Virus record (IMG/VR): IMGVR_UViG_3300021405_000018
Location: 1-52,064 of that record
Direction: 5' to 3' (one strand)
Origin: a virus
Lineage: Duplodnaviria; Caudoviricetes
DNA: 52,064 nt
Part shown: positions 3,618 to 52,064 of the stretch, piece by piece
Position numbering within the stretch: position 1 is the first letter of the stretch
Layout of the letters: each line of letters begins with the position of its first letter
The notes under the pieces: model-generated
What the model saw: only the letters and a program-made list of their open reading frames with translations
Databases searched by the model: none
Told to the model about the DNA's origin: nothing
Program-made: the position numbers and the translations under genes

Positions 3618-4841
3618 ATGACTGTCGTCATCCTGACGAGTGGCACCTCGTACAATATCCCTGGCGACTGGACCAATACTAACCAGATCGAGACGACTGG
3701 TGGTGGTGGTGCGGGCGGCGGTGGCGCAGGTTCTGCTGGCGGTGGTGGTGGCGGTGGTGGCTACGCAACGGTAAGCAACCAGACAGGGCTTTCAGGTAGC
3801 CAAACAATTGCTATTGGTGCGGCAGGGGCACCTGACCTTGTTAGTTTTACTAATGGGGGTCCTGGCGGCAATACCAGTTTCGGCGCGACTCCTCTTGTAG
3901 CAGCTTCCGGTGGTGGTGGTGGCGCAGACAATGGTGGTGCTGGTGGGAGCGGCGGTACTGCTACTACTGGAACAGGTTCAACTGGTGGTACAGGAGGCAG
4001 TGGGGCTAATATCTTCACTGGTGGCGGCGGTGGTGGGGCGGCAGGCCCATCAGGCGCTGGTAATAACGGTACTACTGGATCAGGTGGTAATGGCGGTCTT
4101 GGGGGCAGTGGTGGTTCCGGTGATAATGGTAGCGGTGGTTCTGGTGCTACTGGTACAACAGGGGCAGGGGCTAACGGTACCGCCAACGCTAATGGTGCGG
4201 GCGGCGCAGCCGGTGGTGCTGGTTCAACTAATGCAGGCGGCAATGGTGCTATAGCCGGTAGTGGTGGTGGTGGTGGTGCAAGCGGGATGGAAGGTTTTGG
4301 TGGCTCTGGGGGTGGTGGACAGATCAGGATCACCTACACGCCTGCGGCAGGCGGTGTCACACCCACATGGACGACGATGCCTGAGGGTCGTGTACGCTGG
4401 GCTCGTGATCCCTGGGGCATGTTCGACTACCTCGGGTGGCAGCGGGGACCCCGTCCTATCGACAGGCAACCTGCGATGCAGCAGGGCATGTTCGACGTGC
4501 CCAGGGGTAAGTACAACTGGGCGTTCTATCAGGACTCCCGTAATACCCCGAGGGTGCCGAACTACAACTTCATCATCCCGATCCCGCCGTGGGCCGAGGT
4601 GCCGAAGGGGCCGTGGAACCCTGCCTACTACCAGTCGTGGCAGCGGGGGCCTACGCCTGCGAACGTTTTCCCGCCGATCCCATCGAGTATGTTTACGACC
4701 CTTCCGCCGAGGGGGCCGATTGATGTCCGCTATATGGTCTACTACCAGGGCGCTCAGGCTTCCCCAGCACCATCGACGGTTGCGCCCCCGCTCCACATAA
4801 CGCGCCTGCCCCTGCTAGGAGTTGGCGAGAACGGCCCCTGA
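3618..4841 (+). CDS. Glycine-rich fibre-like protein with Pro/Trp-rich repetitive C-terminus
   Basis: GGGGAGG...GGGGY and GGSGGGGQIRITY motifs typical of phage Gly-rich domains. Confidence 0.7.
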   Translation: MTVVILTSGTSYNIPGDWTNTNQIETTGGGGAGGGGAGSAGGGGGGGGYATVSNQTGLSGSQTIAIGAAGAPDLVSFTNGGPGGNTSFGATPLVAASGGGGGADNGGAGGSGGTATTGTGSTGGTGGSGANIFTGGGGGGAAGPSGAGNNGTTGSGGNGGLGGSGGSGDNGSGGSGATGTTGAGANGTANANGAGGAAGGAGSTNAGGNGAIAGSGGGGGASGMEGFGGSGGGGQIRITYTPAAGGVTPTWTTMPEGRVRWARDPWGMFDYLGWQRGPRPIDRQPAMQQGMFDVPRGKYNWAFYQDSRNTPRVPNYNFIIPIPPWAEVPKGPWNPAYYQSWQRGPTPANVFPPIPSSMFTTLPPRGPIDVRYMVYYQGAQASPAPSTVAPPLHITRLPLLGVGENGP

Positions 4842-19644: not shown

Positions 19645-20133
19645 ATGCAAACTGACTTTGAATACTGTGTAGCTATTGTCCTGCAAGATGAGGGCGGGCT
19701 CGTCAATAATCCGCACGACCCCGGTGGCACCACCAACTTCGGGATCAGCCAGCGGGCATACCCAAGCCTCAACATTGCTGCTCTCACCAAGGAGCAAGCC
19801 GCACAAATCTACTACGATGATTACTGGACGCCCAACAACTGTGGGGATGTACCACTGCAACTGGGCCTTTACTTCTTCACTGTCTGTGTCATGTCGGGTG
19901 GGATGACGGCGACAAAGCTGCTCCAGCAACTTGTGGGAGTAACGGTGGATGGTGCGTATGGGCCTCACACTTCGAATGCTGTCCATAGCTTCCCTGCTGA
20001 ACGTCACTACGAGTATCTTACGCTGTTCATTCAACATCTCATGACCCTCTCAGACTGGGGACCGTTCGCTAAAGGTTGGCTAAATCGGGTTTTACGGCTG
20101 GCTTCTTTAGCACCACCTTCGCAGCAACCGTAA
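19645..20133 (+). CDS. Endolysin, glycoside hydrolase family 108
   Basis: EGG..N.P.DPGG.TNFGI motif; LLQ...GV.VDG..GP.T; F.KGWLNR. Confidence 0.92.
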   Translation: MQTDFEYCVAIVLQDEGGLVNNPHDPGGTTNFGISQRAYPSLNIAALTKEQAAQIYYDDYWTPNNCGDVPLQLGLYFFTVCVMSGGMTATKLLQQLVGVTVDGAYGPHTSNAVHSFPAERHYEYLTLFIQHLMTLSDWGPFAKGWLNRVLRLASLAPPSQQP

Positions 20134-21292
20134 CCGTCTCGATCAACCCACTCCTCTTCAGGCCCTTGACTATCTCATCGAAGTCTCGCGGCTTGGGGAG
20201 GCTACCCCGGATGTAAGCGAACGCCTCTCCTATCTCTACACCCTGTACCCCATGCCGCGCAATGAAGTCAACCAGTCTGTCGGAAACGTTGCTTGTCTCC
20301 GTCTTCCCGATACGGTCAAAGATTGACAGAAGCGTGGACTCAAGGTTTGATACGTGGTGCTCAGCCGTTTGAAGGTCCTCTCTGCTGATAACGAGGGAGT
20401 CATCCCTCGCTGCAGAAAGAACCATTGCGAGCTTATGGAGGTGAGAAGCCTTGCGCGAGTAGAAGCCGCCAAGTCTAGAGTCGTCCTTCCCCTTGCCGTG
20501 GAGCGCACAATGTGCGTCGTACCAATCGATGCCCCACTGCACAGCATCAGGAGCAAGAGTGTACTCACCCTCAAGCCGTCCGATGGCATTGAGGTCGTCC
20601 AGCAAATACCGTTTGAGTGTGTTGTGCTCACGCCATTTCTCCTTTGAGATTTGCAGGCCAGGGTACATGATATTCTGGCGCTTCTCGTCCGCGTAGACCC
20701 ACATGATCCGGGAGACGAGGCCCCCCTCGATCATGTATGTGGGTATGTTGTCACTGATCCATGATGGGGTTGTGCAGCCGATGAGGTTGAGGAAGGGGTG
20801 TTCTACCTGCTCACTGCCATTCCCCTTCGTTGCCTTGTCGAGGGGGCCGCAGTCCCATAGGGTGGTGAGCATGTCCATCATCTGGCGGTCGTCAGTCGAT
20901 ATGAGGTTGCCGAGTTCGCCCGATTCGATGGTAAGGGAGTACGTCTCGACCGTGTTTCCGGGGGAATACTCCACCATCCTGACTGCTTTCTCGAAAGAAG
21001 ACACCAGCGCCTGCCATGTGGTGACGTTGGGTCCCATGTGGATATCGTCCACCTTCCGTAGGAGGCGCATTGCAAGACCCGCATTGGTCGATTTGGCGAT
21101 GACCCCCGGTGGTGCAACGAGGACCACGAACATGTTGGGGTACCACTGGAATGTAAGCTGATCAAACCACACCTTCCTCTGGAGTGCGCCTGCAATGGCA
21201 GAAACGCCTGACCAGAATAGAATGTGATCAGGCGCTTCACCTACATGCCCCAGTTCGATAAACCCCTGGAGCCAATTTGATAGTTTCCTCAT
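20069..21292 (-). CDS. DUF3987-like replication protein (P-loop-like, putative helicase)
   Basis: LVAPPG..AKST, LTTLWD, LIGCTTP.W, GGLVSR; ATGA-coupled to the polymerase. Confidence 0.7.
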   Translation of the reverse strand: MRKLSNWLQGFIELGHVGEAPDHILFWSGVSAIAGALQRKVWFDQLTFQWYPNMFVVLVAPPGVIAKSTNAGLAMRLLRKVDDIHMGPNVTTWQALVSSFEKAVRMVEYSPGNTVETYSLTIESGELGNLISTDDRQMMDMLTTLWDCGPLDKATKGNGSEQVEHPFLNLIGCTTPSWISDNIPTYMIEGGLVSRIMWVYADEKRQNIMYPGLQISKEKWREHNTLKRYLLDDLNAIGRLEGEYTLAPDAVQWGIDWYDAHCALHGKGKDDSRLGGFYSRKASHLHKLAMVLSAARDDSLVISREDLQTAEHHVSNLESTLLSIFDRIGKTETSNVSDRLVDFIARHGVQGVEIGEAFAYIRGSLPKPRDFDEIVKGLKRSGLIETVTVAAKVVLKKPAVKPDLANL

Positions 21293-22023
21293 TGACAATC
21301 CCCCCAACTCTTCTCACTCATTTTCAATCCAACGGGGATGACCAATGGTTCCGGGTAGGGGATGACGATGGTGGCTTCTCGCTTGACGGCTTCTGCGTAG
21401 TCCCCATCGCACTGAATGGGCCACTGCATAGTAAGGCTGTCGTGTACCTGCAACAGAATGTCCACCAGAGGTAGGTTATGGTCGATATTGACATATGCGT
21501 GATTGATGAGGATGCCTACTGTTGATTGGGGAACCCAGGCTACCATACGGTTAAGGATGTTACCCTCTATGCGTTCATAGAACTTCTTTTTGTACCCGAA
21601 AGCATTGGAGACAGTGCCTGTGCGTATGCAACGCTTAACGAACGCATCCTGCCAGCGCTTAATCTCGGGAAACATTTCAAAGTACCAATGCTGGATGCGC
21701 TCCACCTCCTTGACCAGTAGCCCACACTGCCCCGCAATCTCTGGTGCCTTACCCAGGTAGTTCGTAGCGTGGCATAGCTTCTTGAACGCATAGTAGCGCG
21801 GGTCCTCCGTACCATCAGAGCGCTTCTTCTGAATGCTGTTGTCATGGTAGTACTCTCGGGCCACCTGGAGGTATGGTTTTTTCCCCTCCCGGAATAAAGC
21901 CTTCATCCCTTTGCAGTCGCTCTCCCATGTCACTATCCGAAGGTCTGCGCTGTCCAGGTCCAGGTCGGCCATGACCATCCCCTCGTCCGGTATGAACATC
22001 GTACGGATATTGGGCATCGGCAT
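21289..22023 (-). CDS. DNA polymerase family A, C-terminal (palm/fingers) subunit
   Basis: NIR.MFIPD.G, motif A DLDSADLR, motif B KKLCHATNYLG, motif C LQVHDSL; own RBS GGAG. Confidence 0.9.
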   Translation of the reverse strand: MPMPNIRTMFIPDEGMVMADLDLDSADLRIVTWESDCKGMKALFREGKKPYLQVAREYYHDNSIQKKRSDGTEDPRYYAFKKLCHATNYLGKAPEIAGQCGLLVKEVERIQHWYFEMFPEIKRWQDAFVKRCIRTGTVSNAFGYKKKFYERIEGNILNRMVAWVPQSTVGILINHAYVNIDHNLPLVDILLQVHDSLTMQWPIQCDGDYAEAVKREATIVIPYPEPLVIPVGLKMSEKSWGDCQ

Positions 22024-22237
22024 AGCCTTCTCCTAGCATTAGGTAATCGAGGGTGACATCAAGGACACGGGCCAGTTCAAGGAGTGCCCAGTAGCCTGGG
22101 TGGACACCCATGTCCTCGTAGAGGTGCATCGATGTGGGATGCAGACGGGCTCGCTTGGCTAGGACATGGCGCAGGATTCCACGCTCCTCCCGTAGCCGTC
22201 GCAGGCGGGCACCAAAGGTTTCGAAGTCGTTGTTCAT
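21842..22237 (-). CDS. XRE/Cro-C1 HTH protein inserted between the polymerase halves
   Basis: FGARLRRLREERG...LA...YE...P...LARVLDVTLDYL.G; last ~60 codons overlap the polymerase out of frame. Confidence 0.8.
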   Translation of the reverse strand: MNNDFETFGARLRRLREERGILRHVLAKRARLHPTSMHLYEDMGVHPGYWALLELARVLDVTLDYLMLGEGYADAQYPYDVHTGRGDGHGRPGPGQRRPSDSDMGERLQRDEGFIPGGEKTIPPGGPRVLP

Positions 22238-23883
22238 AGCTTTTCCCTTCCATCCGTGATGTTTTGCAGGTTCATTCCCGAGCCGAAGGCGTCTGCGCTA
22301 CTGGAGAACCTGAAAGTGATCGCCCCATTGATATTGTAGCTACAGTGGATACGTCCGTCGTATCCAATTGCAGTGGCCTTAAGTGCGTTCGAAGCGAGGG
22401 TTTCGCAAGACCTAAACGTTGCGATACGATCAGTGATAGGCCTAAGAAATACCTCTCGTTGTCCAATTTTCTCAAGCGCTTCATCGTCACAACAGAGTGC
22501 CTTTGTCTTCCGATTGCGGATAGGCGTTGCGCCCATCTCGTCGTAGAAGAAGGTACACATCTGCTTCGGACTCTTCGGGTTGAGCGGATAGCCGACCATC
22601 TCCGTAATCTCTGCTTCAAGCTGCTTCGCATGGTCCTTTAACTCCTTCAACATTGCTTGGCGTCGGGCGTTGTCAACACGAACCCCACGCGCCATCGTCC
22701 TAAGCACAGGACCAAAGAGAGATTGCTGGAAGTCGTGCGGTCCACGTAGACCCATTCTATCGACCACCGACTGTAGAACGGTATCGCATTCATACGTTCG
22801 AATACAGTCCTCACAGTTGTATGCCCAATACTTGTCTTCATCCTGGTCTGCTCCCTTGTCCCACTCCTTGCCGTCATCCTTCCAGTAGACGTACCACTCG
22901 CAATACATCGAGGCAATGAAGTCGAGGGACTTCTGCATGCCGGGGAAGCACGTGTGCTGGGCTACCATTGTATCTCGAACTTGACGCGGAACCCAGTGCC
23001 AGTGCCGAAGTATATACTGCGCATCGTAGATGAAATTTTGCCCAACGGTGAGTACGTTTGGGTGTGTGAGTAGCCGATACAGCAGCCAAACAATCTCAGA
23101 TTCATCGTCTTCGTTCCAGTATCCCTGCGGTCGTTCGACACAGAGAAATGGCATACAGAGTGCTTCATGATTACTCCACGCTATACCAAGGCACGCAATG
23201 TGCCCGGCTCGGGTTTCAATGTCACATGCCAGTTTCAGGGCTCCTGCTTCAGCCTTGTGATATAGCATGTCAAGACAGTCCCGCACCTGGGACATTGTAG
23301 GCCGTACCTGAAACGCCCATCCGGGTCGATGAGGAACCCGTTGCACACAAGAGGCCGCTCTCCGCAAGTCTTGCACGACAATCGGCTTAAGTGTCCATTG
23401 GCGCAAGACAGCGGCGGGGTGATAGGTAGGTAGCACGATCCCATGTTCCGTCTCCAGGGTACTGCCTCGCCACTTCGCAACGCTATCGAGACCAGTGAGT
23501 GCCCACAGGGCAGTGTTACCGAGGGCGATGATGACGGTCGGACGTACGGCTCTAATTTCAGCAAGTAGTAGAAGGTGCCCCCGAGCGACGTGAGGATGCA
23601 CAGGCCTGCCACGCACCATGACAAAGCCTCCTGCCAGTCCCGCATGCTGCTTCTCCTTCGTGGTGGGCATCCAGAGGTCCATCTTGTTGCCTGGGGGCCG
23701 CTCCCGACAGACGTTCGTGATCCGCACCGAGGCACGGGCGATGCCAACGGCGGAGAGCATCTGGTCCAGGAGTTGGCCGCTGTAGCCCACAAAGGGCTCA
23801 CCAAGGCGCTCCTCGTCCACGCCGGGGGCTTCACCCACTATCATGATGCGGGCGTCCATAGGGCCTATGCTACCGACTGTCAT
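22234..23883 (-). CDS. Uracil-DNA glycosylase (family 4-like) + 3'-5' exonuclease + N-terminal part of family A polymerase
   Basis: GEAPG..E...G.PFVG.SG, TYHPAAVLR; exonuclease DIET / NFIYD / YNCED; NPKSPKQ; RFSSS...NLQNI followed by a stop. Confidence 0.9.
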   Translation of the reverse strand: MTVGSIGPMDARIMIVGEAPGVDEERLGEPFVGYSGQLLDQMLSAVGIARASVRITNVCRERPPGNKMDLWMPTTKEKQHAGLAGGFVMVRGRPVHPHVARGHLLLLAEIRAVRPTVIIALGNTALWALTGLDSVAKWRGSTLETEHGIVLPTYHPAAVLRQWTLKPIVVQDLRRAASCVQRVPHRPGWAFQVRPTMSQVRDCLDMLYHKAEAGALKLACDIETRAGHIACLGIAWSNHEALCMPFLCVERPQGYWNEDDESEIVWLLYRLLTHPNVLTVGQNFIYDAQYILRHWHWVPRQVRDTMVAQHTCFPGMQKSLDFIASMYCEWYVYWKDDGKEWDKGADQDEDKYWAYNCEDCIRTYECDTVLQSVVDRMGLRGPHDFQQSLFGPVLRTMARGVRVDNARRQAMLKELKDHAKQLEAEITEMVGYPLNPKSPKQMCTFFYDEMGATPIRNRKTKALCCDDEALEKIGQREVFLRPITDRIATFRSCETLASNALKATAIGYDGRIHCSYNINGAITFRFSSSADAFGSGMNLQNITDGREKL

Positions 23884-24086
23884 TACCGCACCCGATACAG
23901 ATTGTTGGGATCAGGACGCTTCGAGGGGCGTGCCAGCTTACGGTCGATGTACCCAAAGCAGGCCTCACCATCCGCCAGCACTGCAAGCCACGTATGTGCC
24001 GGGTGGGAGTCAACGTAGACAGTCCCATGGAAAGTGTTGCTCATATGATCCCACTCAACCCTATCACCTTTCTTGAAGTCCATCAT
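23883..24086 (-). CDS. Hypothetical protein (SH3-like start FKKGDRV)
   Basis: Coupled ORF, RBS AGGAG. Confidence 0.6.
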   Translation of the reverse strand: MMDFKKGDRVEWDHMSNTFHGTVYVDSHPAHTWLAVLADGEACFGYIDRKLARPSKRPDPNNLYRVR

Positions 24087-24343
24087 AGACTCCTCATGAA
24101 GTCCTCGTGCCCCTGCCTGTCGAACCCTTCAGGACCGTGATTGGTCCTGGTGTACTGCTGCCAGCGCTCCTCAACGAAGGCCATAGCCCCCGCATTAAAC
24201 GGTACAGCAAGGTCATCTGTTGTATCGAAGAACGCAGTCTCCCCATCCATCGGGTTATAAGCGATAAACACAAACTCGACCCCGTGCTCATAGAACAGGG
24301 TAGAGGATGTAGGCACCTCATACGCGTAGAAGATCATGCTCAT
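24083..24343 (-). CDS. Hypothetical protein with shared C-terminal motif
   Basis: Coupled ORF; ends PEGFDRQGHEDFMRSL. Confidence 0.65.
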   Translation of the reverse strand: MSMIFYAYEVPTSSTLFYEHGVEFVFIAYNPMDGETAFFDTTDDLAVPFNAGAMAFVEERWQQYTRTNHGPEGFDRQGHEDFMRSL

Positions 24344-24534
24344 GTGTCATCGTCCTCGTCAATGTCGGGGTATTCCTGAAGCGCTTCTTCGCCCTCAGAC
24401 ACATAATTGTCCGTAGGCGGAAGCTCCTCTGCCTCTACCGTCAGGTACACAGTCTGGTCCATACTGTTGTAGTACGAGCCCATCGTGGATGACCAGCATG
24501 TGCAGGCAGGCACGACTGCGGTGTAGAGGATCAT
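24340..24534 (-). CDS. Acidic hypothetical protein
   Basis: ATGA coupling, RBS AAGGAG. Confidence 0.55.
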   Translation of the reverse strand: MILYTAVVPACTCWSSTMGSYYNSMDQTVYLTVEAEELPPTDNYVSEGEEALQEYPDIDEDDDT

Positions 24535-24710
24535 GACGGCTCCTTAATCTCCATCAGGAAGTTACCGTTGGGCATAGGCCCGTACTTGAAGTCCGGGAAC
24601 AGGACCATTGCTGCGTCGGCCTCTTCACGGGTTACCTCAATACGACCCCCAGCTTTCTGCACCAGGGCAAGGATGATCATCATCAGGACAGCTTCGTTCT
24701 CGTGCATCAT
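24531..24710 (-). CDS. Hypothetical protein (59 aa)
   Basis: MMHENEAVLMMIILALVQKAGGRIEV...; ATGA overlaps at both ends. Confidence 0.6.
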   Translation of the reverse strand: MMHENEAVLMMIILALVQKAGGRIEVTREEADAAMVLFPDFKYGPMPNGNFLMEIKEPS

Positions 24711-25132
24711 AGACCTCTCATAAATTCGTCGTAAGCCTTCTTGTCGATTGCCTCGGGCGCAAGTCCGGGGCGTGTCTCGGCAGGGTTCGCCACAGACGGC
24801 GGCGCAGGATCAGGCGGTCGCCGGATAGGCATACCATTGGGACCTGTCGTTGCGGTGTTGCGTGGATGGACAGCCCCCGCACTGATGCCCATACCTGCGG
24901 TGTTGGTGCGCATCGAGGCGAAGGGGTCGAGCTTCCCTCCAGCCTGATACCAGTTCATGTGGGGCGCTGCCTTACAGATGTCGCACTCAGTACAGTGGGA
25001 CATGTTAGTATCGAACATCCCACACTTGAAGCAAGCCCGCGTAGGCTTAACCCCAAGGGTGGACGCGGATATCTTAGCGTGGTACCCCAGCAGATCAGGG
25101 ATAGCCCTCATGTCGTGCGATGGATGGATCAT
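24707..25132 (-). CDS. Cys-rich hypothetical protein with shared C-terminal motif
   Basis: CFKC...CTECDIC; ends PEAIDKKAYDEFMRGL. Confidence 0.6.
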   Translation of the reverse strand: MIHPSHDMRAIPDLLGYHAKISASTLGVKPTRACFKCGMFDTNMSHCTECDICKAAPHMNWYQAGGKLDPFASMRTNTAGMGISAGAVHPRNTATTGPNGMPIRRPPDPAPPSVANPAETRPGLAPEAIDKKAYDEFMRGL

Positions 25133-25581
25133 GTCGGCCTCTTAACTTGATTGACTAGAATCTTACCTTGTTCCCGCAGGACCTTGACCACGCGTGGATC
25201 GTCGTCGTAGGCGCAGATAACCCGATCTTGGGGAACCGGGGAGACGGTGAGCCACTTCAGCTTCGTAGTCTCCGTTGGTTCCGCCACTGCTACTGCCTTC
25301 GGCCTTAAGAGGAGCTGTTCGAACGGTACGCCGTTGTTCCTTAGCCATACTTCTGTCTGACTCCTGATACGTTCGGTCCTGCCCGACCAGCACCATACCT
25401 GCTTGCCGAAGGCCTTGAAGGCGCGGGCCACAAGGATCGTAGGCATGATGGGCTGGTCGTAGATGCACTGATCCTCAAACTCGTCCCAGTCCATCTCATC
25501 ACGCTTGAAGTAATGGAGTCGGTGGTCCATGTCGGCCAGGGTGTTGTCGATATCGAAGAGGACGATGTTGGGTTCCATCAT
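25129..25581 (-). CDS. HAD phosphatase (T4 PNKP/PseT phosphatase-domain-like)
   Basis: FDIDNTLA, WSGR, LLLRP, K, YDDDPRVV. Confidence 0.85.
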   Translation of the reverse strand: MMEPNIVLFDIDNTLADMDHRLHYFKRDEMDWDEFEDQCIYDQPIMPTILVARAFKAFGKQVWCWSGRTERIRSQTEVWLRNNGVPFEQLLLRPKAVAVAEPTETTKLKWLTVSPVPQDRVICAYDDDPRVVKVLREQGKILVNQVKRPT

Positions 25582-25823
25582 TGTGCCTTGCGGTTACCGT
25601 GGCGGTCGTAGGTGACGTTCTCGTTGGCTTTCAGGACAACACAACGAGCCTGTGTCAGATACCATGTGCTACCGTCCTCAAGCGTGTTGGGCTCAAGGTT
25701 CTGGTTGATCATGTTGGCACACGCGGTGACCGAGGGCATGACTGCATGCGCCTGCACCACTTCGCCGGTTGCACCGTTGGTGAAGTAGCCGACTGCAACT
25801 ACGATGAGGGTTGGGACTAACAT
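25578..25823 (-). CDS. Small exported protein
   Basis: Hydrophobic N-terminus, two Cys. Confidence 0.55.
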   Translation of the reverse strand: MLVPTLIVVAVGYFTNGATGEVVQAHAVMPSVTACANMINQNLEPNTLEDGSTWYLTQARCVVLKANENVTYDRHGNRKAQ

Positions 25824-25832
25824 TTTACACTC

Positions 25833-26495
25833 CTAGAAACGATATGAAAGGTACAACATGTGCAGGCCAGTGACGAGGCCCGGATTCGGGTTCCATGCCT
25901 CGCGGACCTGATAGTAGCGGTAGTGGAGGCCCCACCGACCGCGCTCAACACCCGCCCCCATGACCCAGCCGAACTGCGTTGAGGTCTTGTGGTTGTAGTT
26001 GCCCCCGCCTGCGGCCTCGTGCCACGTAGCCCACACTGCGGAGGGGCCTGCCTCGACACTGAACCGGAACCCACCATAGGTGTACCCCGGCTCAAAGGTC
26101 AGGCTGACCACCTGAACGTGCCCGAACCCATTGAAGGCGGTACGGGGGCCGTTGTAGTGTCCGGAGTAGTAGTCGGCGTCGGACACGCACATGCAGGCGG
26201 CAGACTGCTGTCCAGCATAGGTGTAGTCAAGATGAAGTAGACCATCCCAGCGACCAGCATGGTACAGAGGAAATACAAGGCCAACCACCACCGCTGGCGA
26301 GGTGAGTTTTTCACTGTCAGGCACTCCTTTCTTTTGCTGCCATACATCATCGCCGATGTCCTTGCCCGCCACTACGGCACCGAGGCCTACCTCGGCCTGG
26401 AAGAAGGACTCAGCCCTCGCCTCATTGATAAGCACTATGAGTAGTACGAATACGAATACCACCATAGCAATGCCTAGTTTCGTTGGTGCTTTCAT
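25833..26495 (-). CDS. Outer-membrane beta-barrel protein
   Basis: Signal peptide ending ARA, alternating amphipathic strands, C-terminal LYLSYRF (BAM-type motif). Confidence 0.75.
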   Translation of the reverse strand: MKAPTKLGIAMVVFVFVLLIVLINEARAESFFQAEVGLGAVVAGKDIGDDVWQQKKGVPDSEKLTSPAVVVGLVFPLYHAGRWDGLLHLDYTYAGQQSAACMCVSDADYYSGHYNGPRTAFNGFGHVQVVSLTFEPGYTYGGFRFSVEAGPSAVWATWHEAAGGGNYNHKTSTQFGWVMGAGVERGRWGLHYRYYQVREAWNPNPGLVTGLHMLYLSYRF

Positions 26496-26806
26496 GTCAG
26501 TTTCCCATCCACGATATCGTCAGCCAGTTTCCGAAGCTCCTTCTCCCGCTTCGTCTCCTTTGCCAGTTCCTTTTGCCGCTTCTCTCGCAGGGCAACCATC
26601 CCTGTAGGCTTCGGCAACGACGTAAACTCCACCACTTCACTGATGCGCACGATGTATGTCTTGTCGGCGCTCATATTGAAGACCCTTATGCTCAGGTCGT
26701 GTGGCACATCGGGTGGCGTGAAGTGCTCGAATGGCTTGAGCGTTCGCTCTGCATACGGCACCTCCTCCACCTTGTGCTTCACGCCTTTGACGGCGTCATC
26801 CTTCAT
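26492..26806 (-). CDS. Hypothetical protein
   Basis: GGAG RBS, coupled stop. Confidence 0.55.
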   Translation of the reverse strand: MKDDAVKGVKHKVEEVPYAERTLKPFEHFTPPDVPHDLSIRVFNMSADKTYIVRISEVVEFTSLPKPTGMVALREKRQKELAKETKREKELRKLADDIVDGKLT

Positions 26807-27104
26807 TTGGGTGGCTCCCATCCGTGATGGCGAGGAGGTTCTGGATACGGTCGTTGATCTTACCTGACTGTTCCACGAACGTTTCTCGTAGGGCGTCCTG
26901 CTTCATGCGCAGTGAGTGAATCTGACGCGCAGTGAATTCTCCCGGCGACAGCTCCTTAATCTCCACCTCAATATCACAGATGTACACATACTCCTGTGCC
27001 TCAAGACACTTACGGTCGTCGGTGGCATTGAAGAAGTGGTAGCGGGCAATGTCCTCCCACTCATACTTCTTTGCATATACTGAAATCATGTTCAACATGT
27101 TCAA
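26796..27104 (-). CDS. Hypothetical protein
   Basis: GGAG RBS; coiled-coil C-terminus. Confidence 0.6.
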   Translation of the reverse strand: MNMLNMISVYAKKYEWEDIARYHFFNATDDRKCLEAQEYVYICDIEVEIKELSPGEFTARQIHSLRMKQDALRETFVEQSGKINDRIQNLLAITDGSHPNEG

Positions 27105-51560: not shown

Positions 51561-52064
51561 ATGCCAGGAATTGGCGGTATCATCACCACAGGCGCACACC
51601 CCAAGGCGCTCTGGCCGGGAATCAAGGCGTGGTGGGGTCGTACGTACGCGGAACACCAGGAAGAATGGCCGCACCTCTTCATGCAGGATTCGTCCCACAT
51701 GAACTACGAGGAAGACGTCCAGGTCATCGGGTTCGGTCTCGCGTCGGTCAAGCCGGAAGGCGCTGGTACGATCTACCAGTCCGAAGTACAGGGCTTCATC
51801 ACGCGGTACGTCCACCTCGCGTATAGCCTCGGCTATATCGTGACGCAGGAAGAGCTGGAGGACAACCTCTACGAGAAGGTGAGCAAGCGGAGGGCAGCAT
51901 CGCTGGCCTTTAGCTTCCGCCAGACCAAGGAGAACGTTGCAGCGAACATCTACAACAACGCCTTCACCTCGGGTGTGCAGTTCCAGGGTGGGGATGGAGT
52001 GTCGCTCCTGAATGTGGCTCACCCGAATACCTCGGGCGGCACCTTCAGCAACATGCTCGCAGTT
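51561..52064 (+). CDS. Major capsid protein, N-terminal part (runs off the contig end, continues at the start)
   Basis: AGGAG RBS; MPGIGGIITTGAHPKALWPGIKAWWG... Confidence 0.9.
   Translation, partial: MPGIGGIITTGAHPKALWPGIKAWWGRTYAEHQEEWPHLFMQDSSHMNYEEDVQVIGFGLASVKPEGAGTIYQSEVQGFITRYVHLAYSLGYIVTQEELEDNLYEKVSKRRAASLAFSFRQTKENVAANIYNNAFTSGVQFQGGDGVSLLNVAHPNTSGGTFSNMLAV
51610..52064. repeat. Terminal redundancy copy B
   Basis: Matches 1-455. Confidence 0.97.

Follow-up and report, generated by a model that had tools for sequence, protein, structure and literature searches.

Family A DNA polymerase genes broken into pieces have reportedly been published for the LUZ24-like Pseudomonas phages, and T4-like phages are said to carry genes in pieces brought about by free-standing homing endonucleases (Aeh1 nrdA/mobE; gp43 insertions). 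Here we analyse a split polymerase locus in the IMG/VR record IMGVR_UViG_3300021405_000018, a tailed phage genome (Caudoviricetes) derived from a soil metagenome whose 52,064 nt were analysed at full length (hereafter, the window). At positions 21289-23883, on the minus strand, the family A polymerase is encoded by two genes, which we call PolN and PolC, and an open reading frame (ORF) with an XRE-type helix-turn-helix (HTH) domain lies between them. We consider it very probable that PolN and PolC make up a two-subunit family A polymerase, that the junction between their genes is a cargo bay and that the HTH gene is a separately translated piece of cargo.

The known cases resemble this locus to different degrees. 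In the T4-like genes in pieces a conserved enzyme gene is split, an endonuclease occupies the gap and the halves cooperate; this pattern fits a relative of the window, locus L007, where an HNH endonuclease is found together with a duplicated and recoded target, whereas the gap of the window holds the XRE HTH only and no nuclease. In LUZ24 (NC_010325) the family A polymerase is laid out as an exonuclease subunit, a 'DNA polymerase part II' and a 'DNA polymerase', with other genes, endonucleases included, between them. Its break lies elsewhere, near position 290 of the family profile (gp34 runs past position 150 and gp36 covers 295-381), and its pieces are farther apart than those of the window. 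A split DNA polymerase has also been described in an uncultured marine cyanophage lineage (10.1101/325100), and a split family A polymerase in the MEP401-type OM43 phages. Both belong to different phage groups; the passages on the split in these reports speak of inserted ORFs without a recognisable family and describe no comparison of junction cargo across relatives, and the likeness to the window is one of being split. The working model for PolN and PolC is the split B-family polymerase of PhiKZ, whose DNAP-N and DNAP-C form a stable 1:1 complex (PMC13648687). It differs in its family, and the abstract of that report mentions no cargo gene between the halves.

Among the papers seen, our literature searches found no description of a UDG-exonuclease-PolA protein split at the loop discussed here, or of variable cargo in it, and a search combining genes in pieces, homing endonuclease and phage DNA polymerase returned no match. 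As both split polymerases of phages and genes broken up by endonucleases are already on record, the locus is a well-documented further example of a split phage polymerase and not a new principle.

The nearest GenBank phages, Bacteriophage sp. ctMlz233 (MW202489, polymerase of 779 aa) and Microcystis phage Mel-JY34 (PP438425, 810 aa), have the same domain order and, directly 3′ of the polymerase, a DUF3987-type gene; their counterparts of PolC are 53% and 34% identical to that of the window, respectively. They differ in having one continuous polymerase gene, in which the loop after NLQNIP runs on for 12-21 residues before LPNIR/LPDVR. The comparison with orthologues proposed in the first-pass annotation, a reading of the window made before this analysis, therefore does recover an unbroken gene. 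Alignment with these two proteins places the break of the window in the loop that joins NLQNIP to LPNIR, the length of which varies; on the DNA_pol_A profile the break lies between positions 132 and 140.

PolN (22234-23883, minus strand, 549 aa) comprises a UDG-like domain, a 3′-5′ exonuclease and the thumb, with Pfam matches to UDG (E 1.2e-28), DNA_pol_A_exo1 and DNA_pol_A (profile positions 5-132, 56.2 bits). Its C-terminus, ...NLQNITDGREKL before the stop codon, comes directly after the NLQNI region. PolC (21289-22023, minus strand, 244 aa) starts with MPMPNIRTMF, contains the palm and fingers with their motifs, and matches DNA_pol_A (PF00476) at profile positions 140-357 with 60.7 bits. 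Each half exceeds the gathering score of DNA_pol_A (34.3) and together they cover the family profile. Only one PolC match is found in the record, which CheckV classes as complete. Both genes are in one frame (their start coordinates are divisible by 3) and the HTH ORF (21842-22237, minus strand, 131 aa) is in another. The stop codon of PolN (TGA, 22236-22234) and the start codon of the HTH ORF (ATG, 22237-22235) share an ATGA overlap (22234-22237, minus strand), preceded on its 5′ side by a purine-rich GGAAGGG. PolC has its own translation start (22021-22033, minus strand), made of a GGAG ribosome binding site (RBS; 22033-22030), a 6-nt spacer and an ATG (22023-22021). The junction codons are GAA AAG CTA TGA at 22245-22234 and GAG AAG GCT ATG at 22032-22021, and four stops interrupt the polymerase frame across the intervening stretch. 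The HTH ORF meets no stop before PolC and overlaps it out of frame by 182 nt (22023 down to 21842). The ORFs, frames, E-K junctions, overlap and GGAG RBS listed in the first-pass annotation thus all hold in the sequence.

The polymerase is conserved on both sides of the break. Across 37 sequences (36 short PolC proteins and that of the window), 47 PolC columns are invariant, including D20, D22, K81, Y89, H194 and D195; the acidic residues are found in DLDLDSADLR and the HD in LLQVHDSL, and K81/Y89 are kept. These catalytic residues (with the fingers Lys/Tyr and the HD of motif C) represent motifs A, B and C, all three of which are kept in PolC, and polymerase activity is predicted for the assembled halves. 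PolN has more than 100 invariant columns across seven split-type PolN sequences, and the PolN of the window is 56-82% identical to the stand-alone PolN of L006, L007, L014 and L026.

The break is shared by many relatives. Among the kept IMG/VR loci, 13 of 80 are split at the NLQNI/PNIR loop (L003, L006-L014, L026, L048, L070). Another 80 loci from metagenomes were scored as 21 split, 56 continuous and 3 undecidable; two of the 21 (L133 and L139) are continuous at this loop, which leaves 19 metagenome loci split there. After de-duplication, and with the window included, the distinct split loci number 23. A wider set of 327 short, PolC-only metagenome proteins (134-427 aa, E < 1e-10) points to the same place: of the best 120, 86 have their first residue 0-14 positions ahead of PNIR. 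The others of these 120 comprise 15 cut pieces of continuous genes and 19 proteins with different starting points, of which 9 begin beyond PNIR, 7 begin beyond motif A and 3 have longer N-terminal extensions.

In a PolC tree of 80 rows the window falls in a clade of 12 rows, all split, with a Shimodaira-Hasegawa-like approximate likelihood ratio test (SH-aLRT) support of 100, and PolC identity within the split clade goes down to 57-59%. Split forms also occur inside an otherwise continuous group (L048 and L070); three state changes are needed on the tree, of which only one is forced by well-supported branches. As judged from these comparisons, the polymerase break has been passed down in a clade of phages from soil and freshwater, and the HTH gene did not create it in this genome.

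The two loci set apart above, L133 (831-3211) and L139 (828-3214), are more distant relatives with a polymerase broken inside the exonuclease region. In each, an ORF of 348-350 aa and one of 444-445 aa have 1 or 4 nt in common, and the loop reads NLENW...PPPN[IV]RR. The exonuclease region is a second place at which polymerases of this family are naturally split.

What lies between PolN and PolC varies widely. The gap ranges from none (-4 to +7 nt) up to about 1475 nt in L094. In seven gapless loci (L048, L070, L102, L135, L142, L149 and L160) the PolN stop overlaps the PolC start or is at most 7 nt away from it, and the KGD codons supply the RBS of PolC. XRE HTH ORFs come in separate types, one shared by the window, L007 and L087, another by L003 and L093, and a third in L006; Pfam finds HTH_3 in the junction ORFs of L003, L006 and L007. 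Those of L008 and L092 are winged-helix-like by eye, the former having no Pfam or PHROG match. In L009, L014, L094 and L096 the first cargo gene is a MazG-like pyrophosphatase (L009:3195-3590, L014:3178-3558, L094:710-1075, L096:1633-2055), followed by a second, helix-rich ORF; the scanned ORFs of L009 and L014 match the pyrophosphatase family phrog_5658 (E down to 8e-66), and the MazG-like label of those of L094 and L096 is a by-eye one, based on their resemblance to that of L014. Three small ORFs occupy the junction of L099, and the cargo of L009, L014, L094, L096 and L099 consists of at least two ORFs in different frames. In L007 the HTH ORF is followed by an HNH endonuclease (phrog_374, E 2e-50). 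The coding ends on either side are highly conserved, and the junction between them acts as a cargo bay.

Since relatives are split at the same loop without any insert or with unrelated cargo, the split is independent of the HTH gene, which need not be its cause. The first-pass annotation had proposed a two-subunit PolA created by insertion of a regulator gene; the two subunits stand, and their creation by that insertion is not borne out. Variable gap and cargo, together with a chance-level sharing of frame (PolN and PolC are in a common frame in 7 of the 19 distinct split loci with both ends visible, against an expectation of about one third) and a PolC start codon of its own at the same place in every split locus, with start signals kept at all junctions examined, fit a polymerase of two chains and not ribosomal bypass, RNA excision or frameshifting.

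The expression of the locus may be pictured as follows. The phage's only family A DNA polymerase is very probably made as two polypeptides. NLQNI and PNIR/motif A are separated by a surface loop, acidic and variable, and the break lies in this loop. PolN would be translated first and terminate at its TGA, where the overlapping ATG would let ribosomes continue to the HTH protein, as expected from established knowledge of translational coupling. Ribosomes translating the HTH ORF would then run over the RBS and start codon of PolC in another frame, and PolC would initiate at its own GGAG-N6-ATG. PolN (exonuclease, thumb) and PolC (palm, fingers) would finally associate, PhiKZ-like, into the replicative polymerase.

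The HTH part of the cargo ORF (22027-22237, minus strand, residues 1 to about 70) is a complete domain, as had been proposed from a reading of the letters alone. It matches HTH_31 (PF13560) at residues 8-63 with 37.8 bits against a cut-off of 27, falls below threshold for HTH_3 (PF01381; 17.8 against 23) and is assigned by PHROG to transcriptional regulators. AlphaFold2, run with a 10-row alignment, predicts a compact helical fold (helices at residues 8-18, 23-29, 34-42, 49-59 and 63-73), with block means of the predicted local distance difference test (pLDDT) of 86-95 over residues 11-70. We regard the product as cargo, most likely a small regulator that binds DNA in a sequence-specific manner. 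A repeat scan of the whole window for operators of this protein gave nothing linked to the HTH gene.

The remainder of the ORF (21842-22026, minus strand) is an overprinted tail of about 60 codons in the -1 frame of PolC, crossing its RBS, its start codon and its motif A region, where PolC is most conserved. Residues 75-131 have a pLDDT below 50 and are predicted to be disordered. Comparable tails are present in L003, L006, L008, L009 and the metagenomic proteins P0124, P0125 and P0126, the N-terminal parts of which are unrelated to one another. The -1 frame runs on without a stop as far as codon 51-56 in L003, L006, L008 and the window; that of L009 extends to codon 111. The window and L008, both open to codon 56, have 44% of third codon positions in common in this stretch. 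A test for T before risk codons gave 0/57 against 15/135 (Fisher p 0.006), a partly circular result, as the group had been chosen for lacking stops, and one on which nothing is based by itself. In L092 and L093 the tail is short and stops after 22 and 9 codons, respectively, and in the unrelated locus L145 the same frame is open for 97 codons by chance; given these short tails and this chance frame, our view is that the tail is probably translated and tolerated, and that it may have a role.

Several points count against the reading set out above. For any member of the group, the non-covalent assembly of PolN and PolC into an active enzyme, which we infer, is read from sequence. The regulator role of the HTH protein is drawn from its domain in the same way, and only six homologues of this ORF were found. 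Contigs from two soil metatranscriptome libraries are confined to 23213-23615, inside PolN (98-100% identity), so that a transcript over both junctions is not covered by them. The HTH ORF lacks a stop codon of its own, and the order of frames, from PolN by -1 to HTH and by +1 to PolC, would in principle allow a single chain by way of two frameshifts. Finally, the tail frame stays open longer where a junction ORF reads into PolC: the first stop has a median at codon 32 in these loci (n=12; 5 of the 12 reach codon 51 or beyond) and at codon 10 in the other distinct loci (n=110), of which 4 reach codon 51, two of them, L007 and L087, being members of the clade that includes the window (Mann-Whitney p 7e-5 for 12 against 110 loci, kinship ignored). 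These later stops hint that read-through of the PolC start matters beyond a simple cargo model. A complex prediction with PolN residues 190-549, PolC and the HTH ORF as the scored partner, run without controls, gave 0.00 against a mark of 0.32 and counts neither way. As for the RNA libraries themselves, the contigs at 23213-23615 place the phage or a close relative in them, with DNA carry-over possible.

The main alternative to a regulator, to which we give an outside chance, is that a homing endonuclease cassette has decayed here and that its DNA-binding part survives as the HTH gene. The closest HTH homologue, the ORF at the same place in L007 (49% identity), indeed lies directly 5′ of an HNH gene in the same bay, and L007 and L087 look like endonuclease-plus and endonuclease-minus alleles with a gradient of identity at the junction. 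The DNA of L007 aligns with the window through ...GGAGAAG..TATGCC.ATGCCCAA.AT and then enters the HNH ORF. The first residues of this ORF, MEKSMPMPNI, are the former beginning of PolC, and the actual PolC of L007 opens with a recoded copy of the old start codons, ATGCCCCTACCTAATATTAGG (L007:3526-4014 with L007:3974-4040; L087:1-170). In L087 the same HTH end is joined straight to PolC in an HNH-less form. Between the two loci, 92/95 nt of the 5′ flank agree, as do 140 of the first 150 nt compared on the 3′ side of the insertion point, which all belong to PolC; in the following 350 nt of PolC, identity drops to 72-86% in windows of 50 nt. An HNH ORF that carries a recoded target and a tract of high identity at the site form the pattern that homing produces, and this one locus pair is suggestive of a homing-endonuclease insertion at the PolC start in L007.

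The same pair speaks against the HTH as a remnant of such a cassette. The HNH of L007 looks later than the HTH, and L087 has the HTH without it; as far as aligned DNA can tell, this shows the HTH to be the older of the two in the L007 lineage. In addition, the HTH domain of the window is intact and confidently folded, the HNH ORF of L007 shows no BLASTP similarity to the HTH-bearing ORFs of L006 and L009, and there is no nuclease domain in the window's bay, the gap ORF of which matches only HTH families in Pfam and PHROG. Segments in the mid-part of the HTH-bearing ORFs of L006 and L009 that had appeared 'AP2-like' were rejected, as Pfam gave no support and BLASTP against the HNH ORF of L007 returned E-values of 0.49 and 6.5.

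Another idea, which we hold to be improbable, is that the junction is a selected co-expression slot, in which DNA-binding cargo works with the polymerase rather than landing passively. At least three HTH or winged-helix types, unrelated to one another, recur directly 5′ of PolC, in ORFs reading through the PolC start into an overprinted tail. As variants of the slot, the cargo could be a DNA-tethering or origin-targeting accessory subunit, or a translational governor of the PolN:PolC ratio acting through ribosomes that cross the PolC start.

That the polymerase is dead, a pseudogene broken by insertion in a phage that relies on host polymerases, is very unlikely. A break inside the gene of a catalytic domain does resemble gene decay, but both ORFs are intact and their conserved columns are kept across a clade as diverged in PolC as that described above. 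The shared starting point of 86 of the best 120 short PolC proteins, the start signals kept at every junction examined and the completeness of the genome also argue for genes in use.

Two programmed frameshifts, -1 near GAA AAG and +1 near the PolC start, would give one polymerase with the HTH domain in a loop between thumb and palm, a scenario with little to recommend it overall. It would account for the order of frames, for an HTH ORF without its own stop and for the tendency of the tail frame to stay open where the ORF reads into PolC, and we take the A AAG within GAA AAG to be shift-prone. Against it, there is no in-frame canonical X XXY YYZ heptamer, the first junctions of relatives lack a slippery run, and the cargo of L009, L014, L094, L096 and L099 is spread over at least two ORFs in different frames. 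As start signals, the ATGA overlap and the GGAG-ATG have nothing unusual about them. None of 346 candidate proteins was a longer protein holding the window's HTH domain, which is weak evidence against a fused product.

The first-pass annotation had also offered recoding into one chain, either by a ribosome hop from AAG 22242-22240 to AAG 22029-22027 (213 nt) or by RNA excision, with NLQNITDGREKAMPMPNIR as the product. In the window, the matched AAG codons, a stop two codons past the first AAG and the common frame of the halves make this look attractive, and single-chain products would imply the junction peptides ...GREK-A-MNND or ...GREKAMPMPNIR (frameshift or bypass). The comparison with relatives leaves it barely credible. 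The common frame is found in only those 7 of 19 distinct split loci, PolN ends in GGD, GEEE, GDKE, GD, GDE or KGDD before the stop codon in relatives, so that the E-K/AAG pair of the first junction is absent from them, and AAG/AAG occurs in the window only. Known bypass gaps are of about 50 nt; here the gaps go from zero to about 1.5 kb with several ORFs. The 213 nt encode a conserved, confidently folding HTH domain with an ATG of its own, PolC has its own RBS and ATG, and Rfam shows no intron or ribozyme match with E up to 1 in 21000-24200. Bypass or excision that needs matched AAG codons and a common frame would, by these sequence criteria, be ruled out for practical purposes. A self-splicing intron or an intein was likewise rejected, with no Rfam intron or ribozyme match (E up to 1) and with four polymerase-frame stops in the insert.

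An artefact of assembly or sequencing (a chimera or indels), raised by the first-pass annotation and conceivable for any metagenome assembly, has a negligible chance of being the cause, given that a 624-nt contig from X3, a DNA run of another sample and study, equals 21909-22532 over both junctions with 0 differences, that contigs at 21952-22138 and 22186-22336 from X4, a run of yet another sample and study, also match with 0 differences, and that equal architecture recurs in many unrelated assemblies. No insertions, deletions or joints were reported in the X3 and X4 comparison, and the stretch is present in several soil metagenome runs.

For the two-subunit polymerase with its cargo bay, natural break points reveal where the enzyme tolerates cutting. 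The cut between thumb and palm leaves motif A at the very N-terminus of the second chain, and many phages have kept this break while diverging deeply, which makes it useful for split-polymerase engineering. There is also a consequence for annotation, as gene callers and polymerase-based virus phylogenies will mis-handle the two-gene forms. The loci form a natural series, from an empty junction to HTH, HTH with HNH endonuclease and other cargo, and may serve as a model for how a split gene becomes a hot spot of mobile and regulatory genes.

Downstream of the polymerase, a DUF3987 gene (20069-21307, minus strand) overlaps the end of PolC by 19 nt, and the PolC-DUF3987 gene order is also present in relatives with a continuous polymerase. 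A scan of 20000-27000 for promoters and terminators returned 3 + 3 candidate sites, no excess over shuffled sequence, with none at the junctions. The ends of the record, classed as linear, form a direct repeat (1-300 and 51610-51909) of 97% identity and not 100%, which could be a terminal repeat or reflect a circular genome assembled from a mixed population. The longest inverted repeat of the window is A+T-rich (39658-39692/39909-39943), with 35-nt arms that are 89% complementary and 216 nt apart, and could mark a regulatory or origin region. An ORF of 407 aa at 3618-4841 (plus strand) is packed with imperfect repeats rich in GGT/GGC (families D1, D3, D4, D8 and D17); its glycine-rich product is probably a structural or fibre protein.

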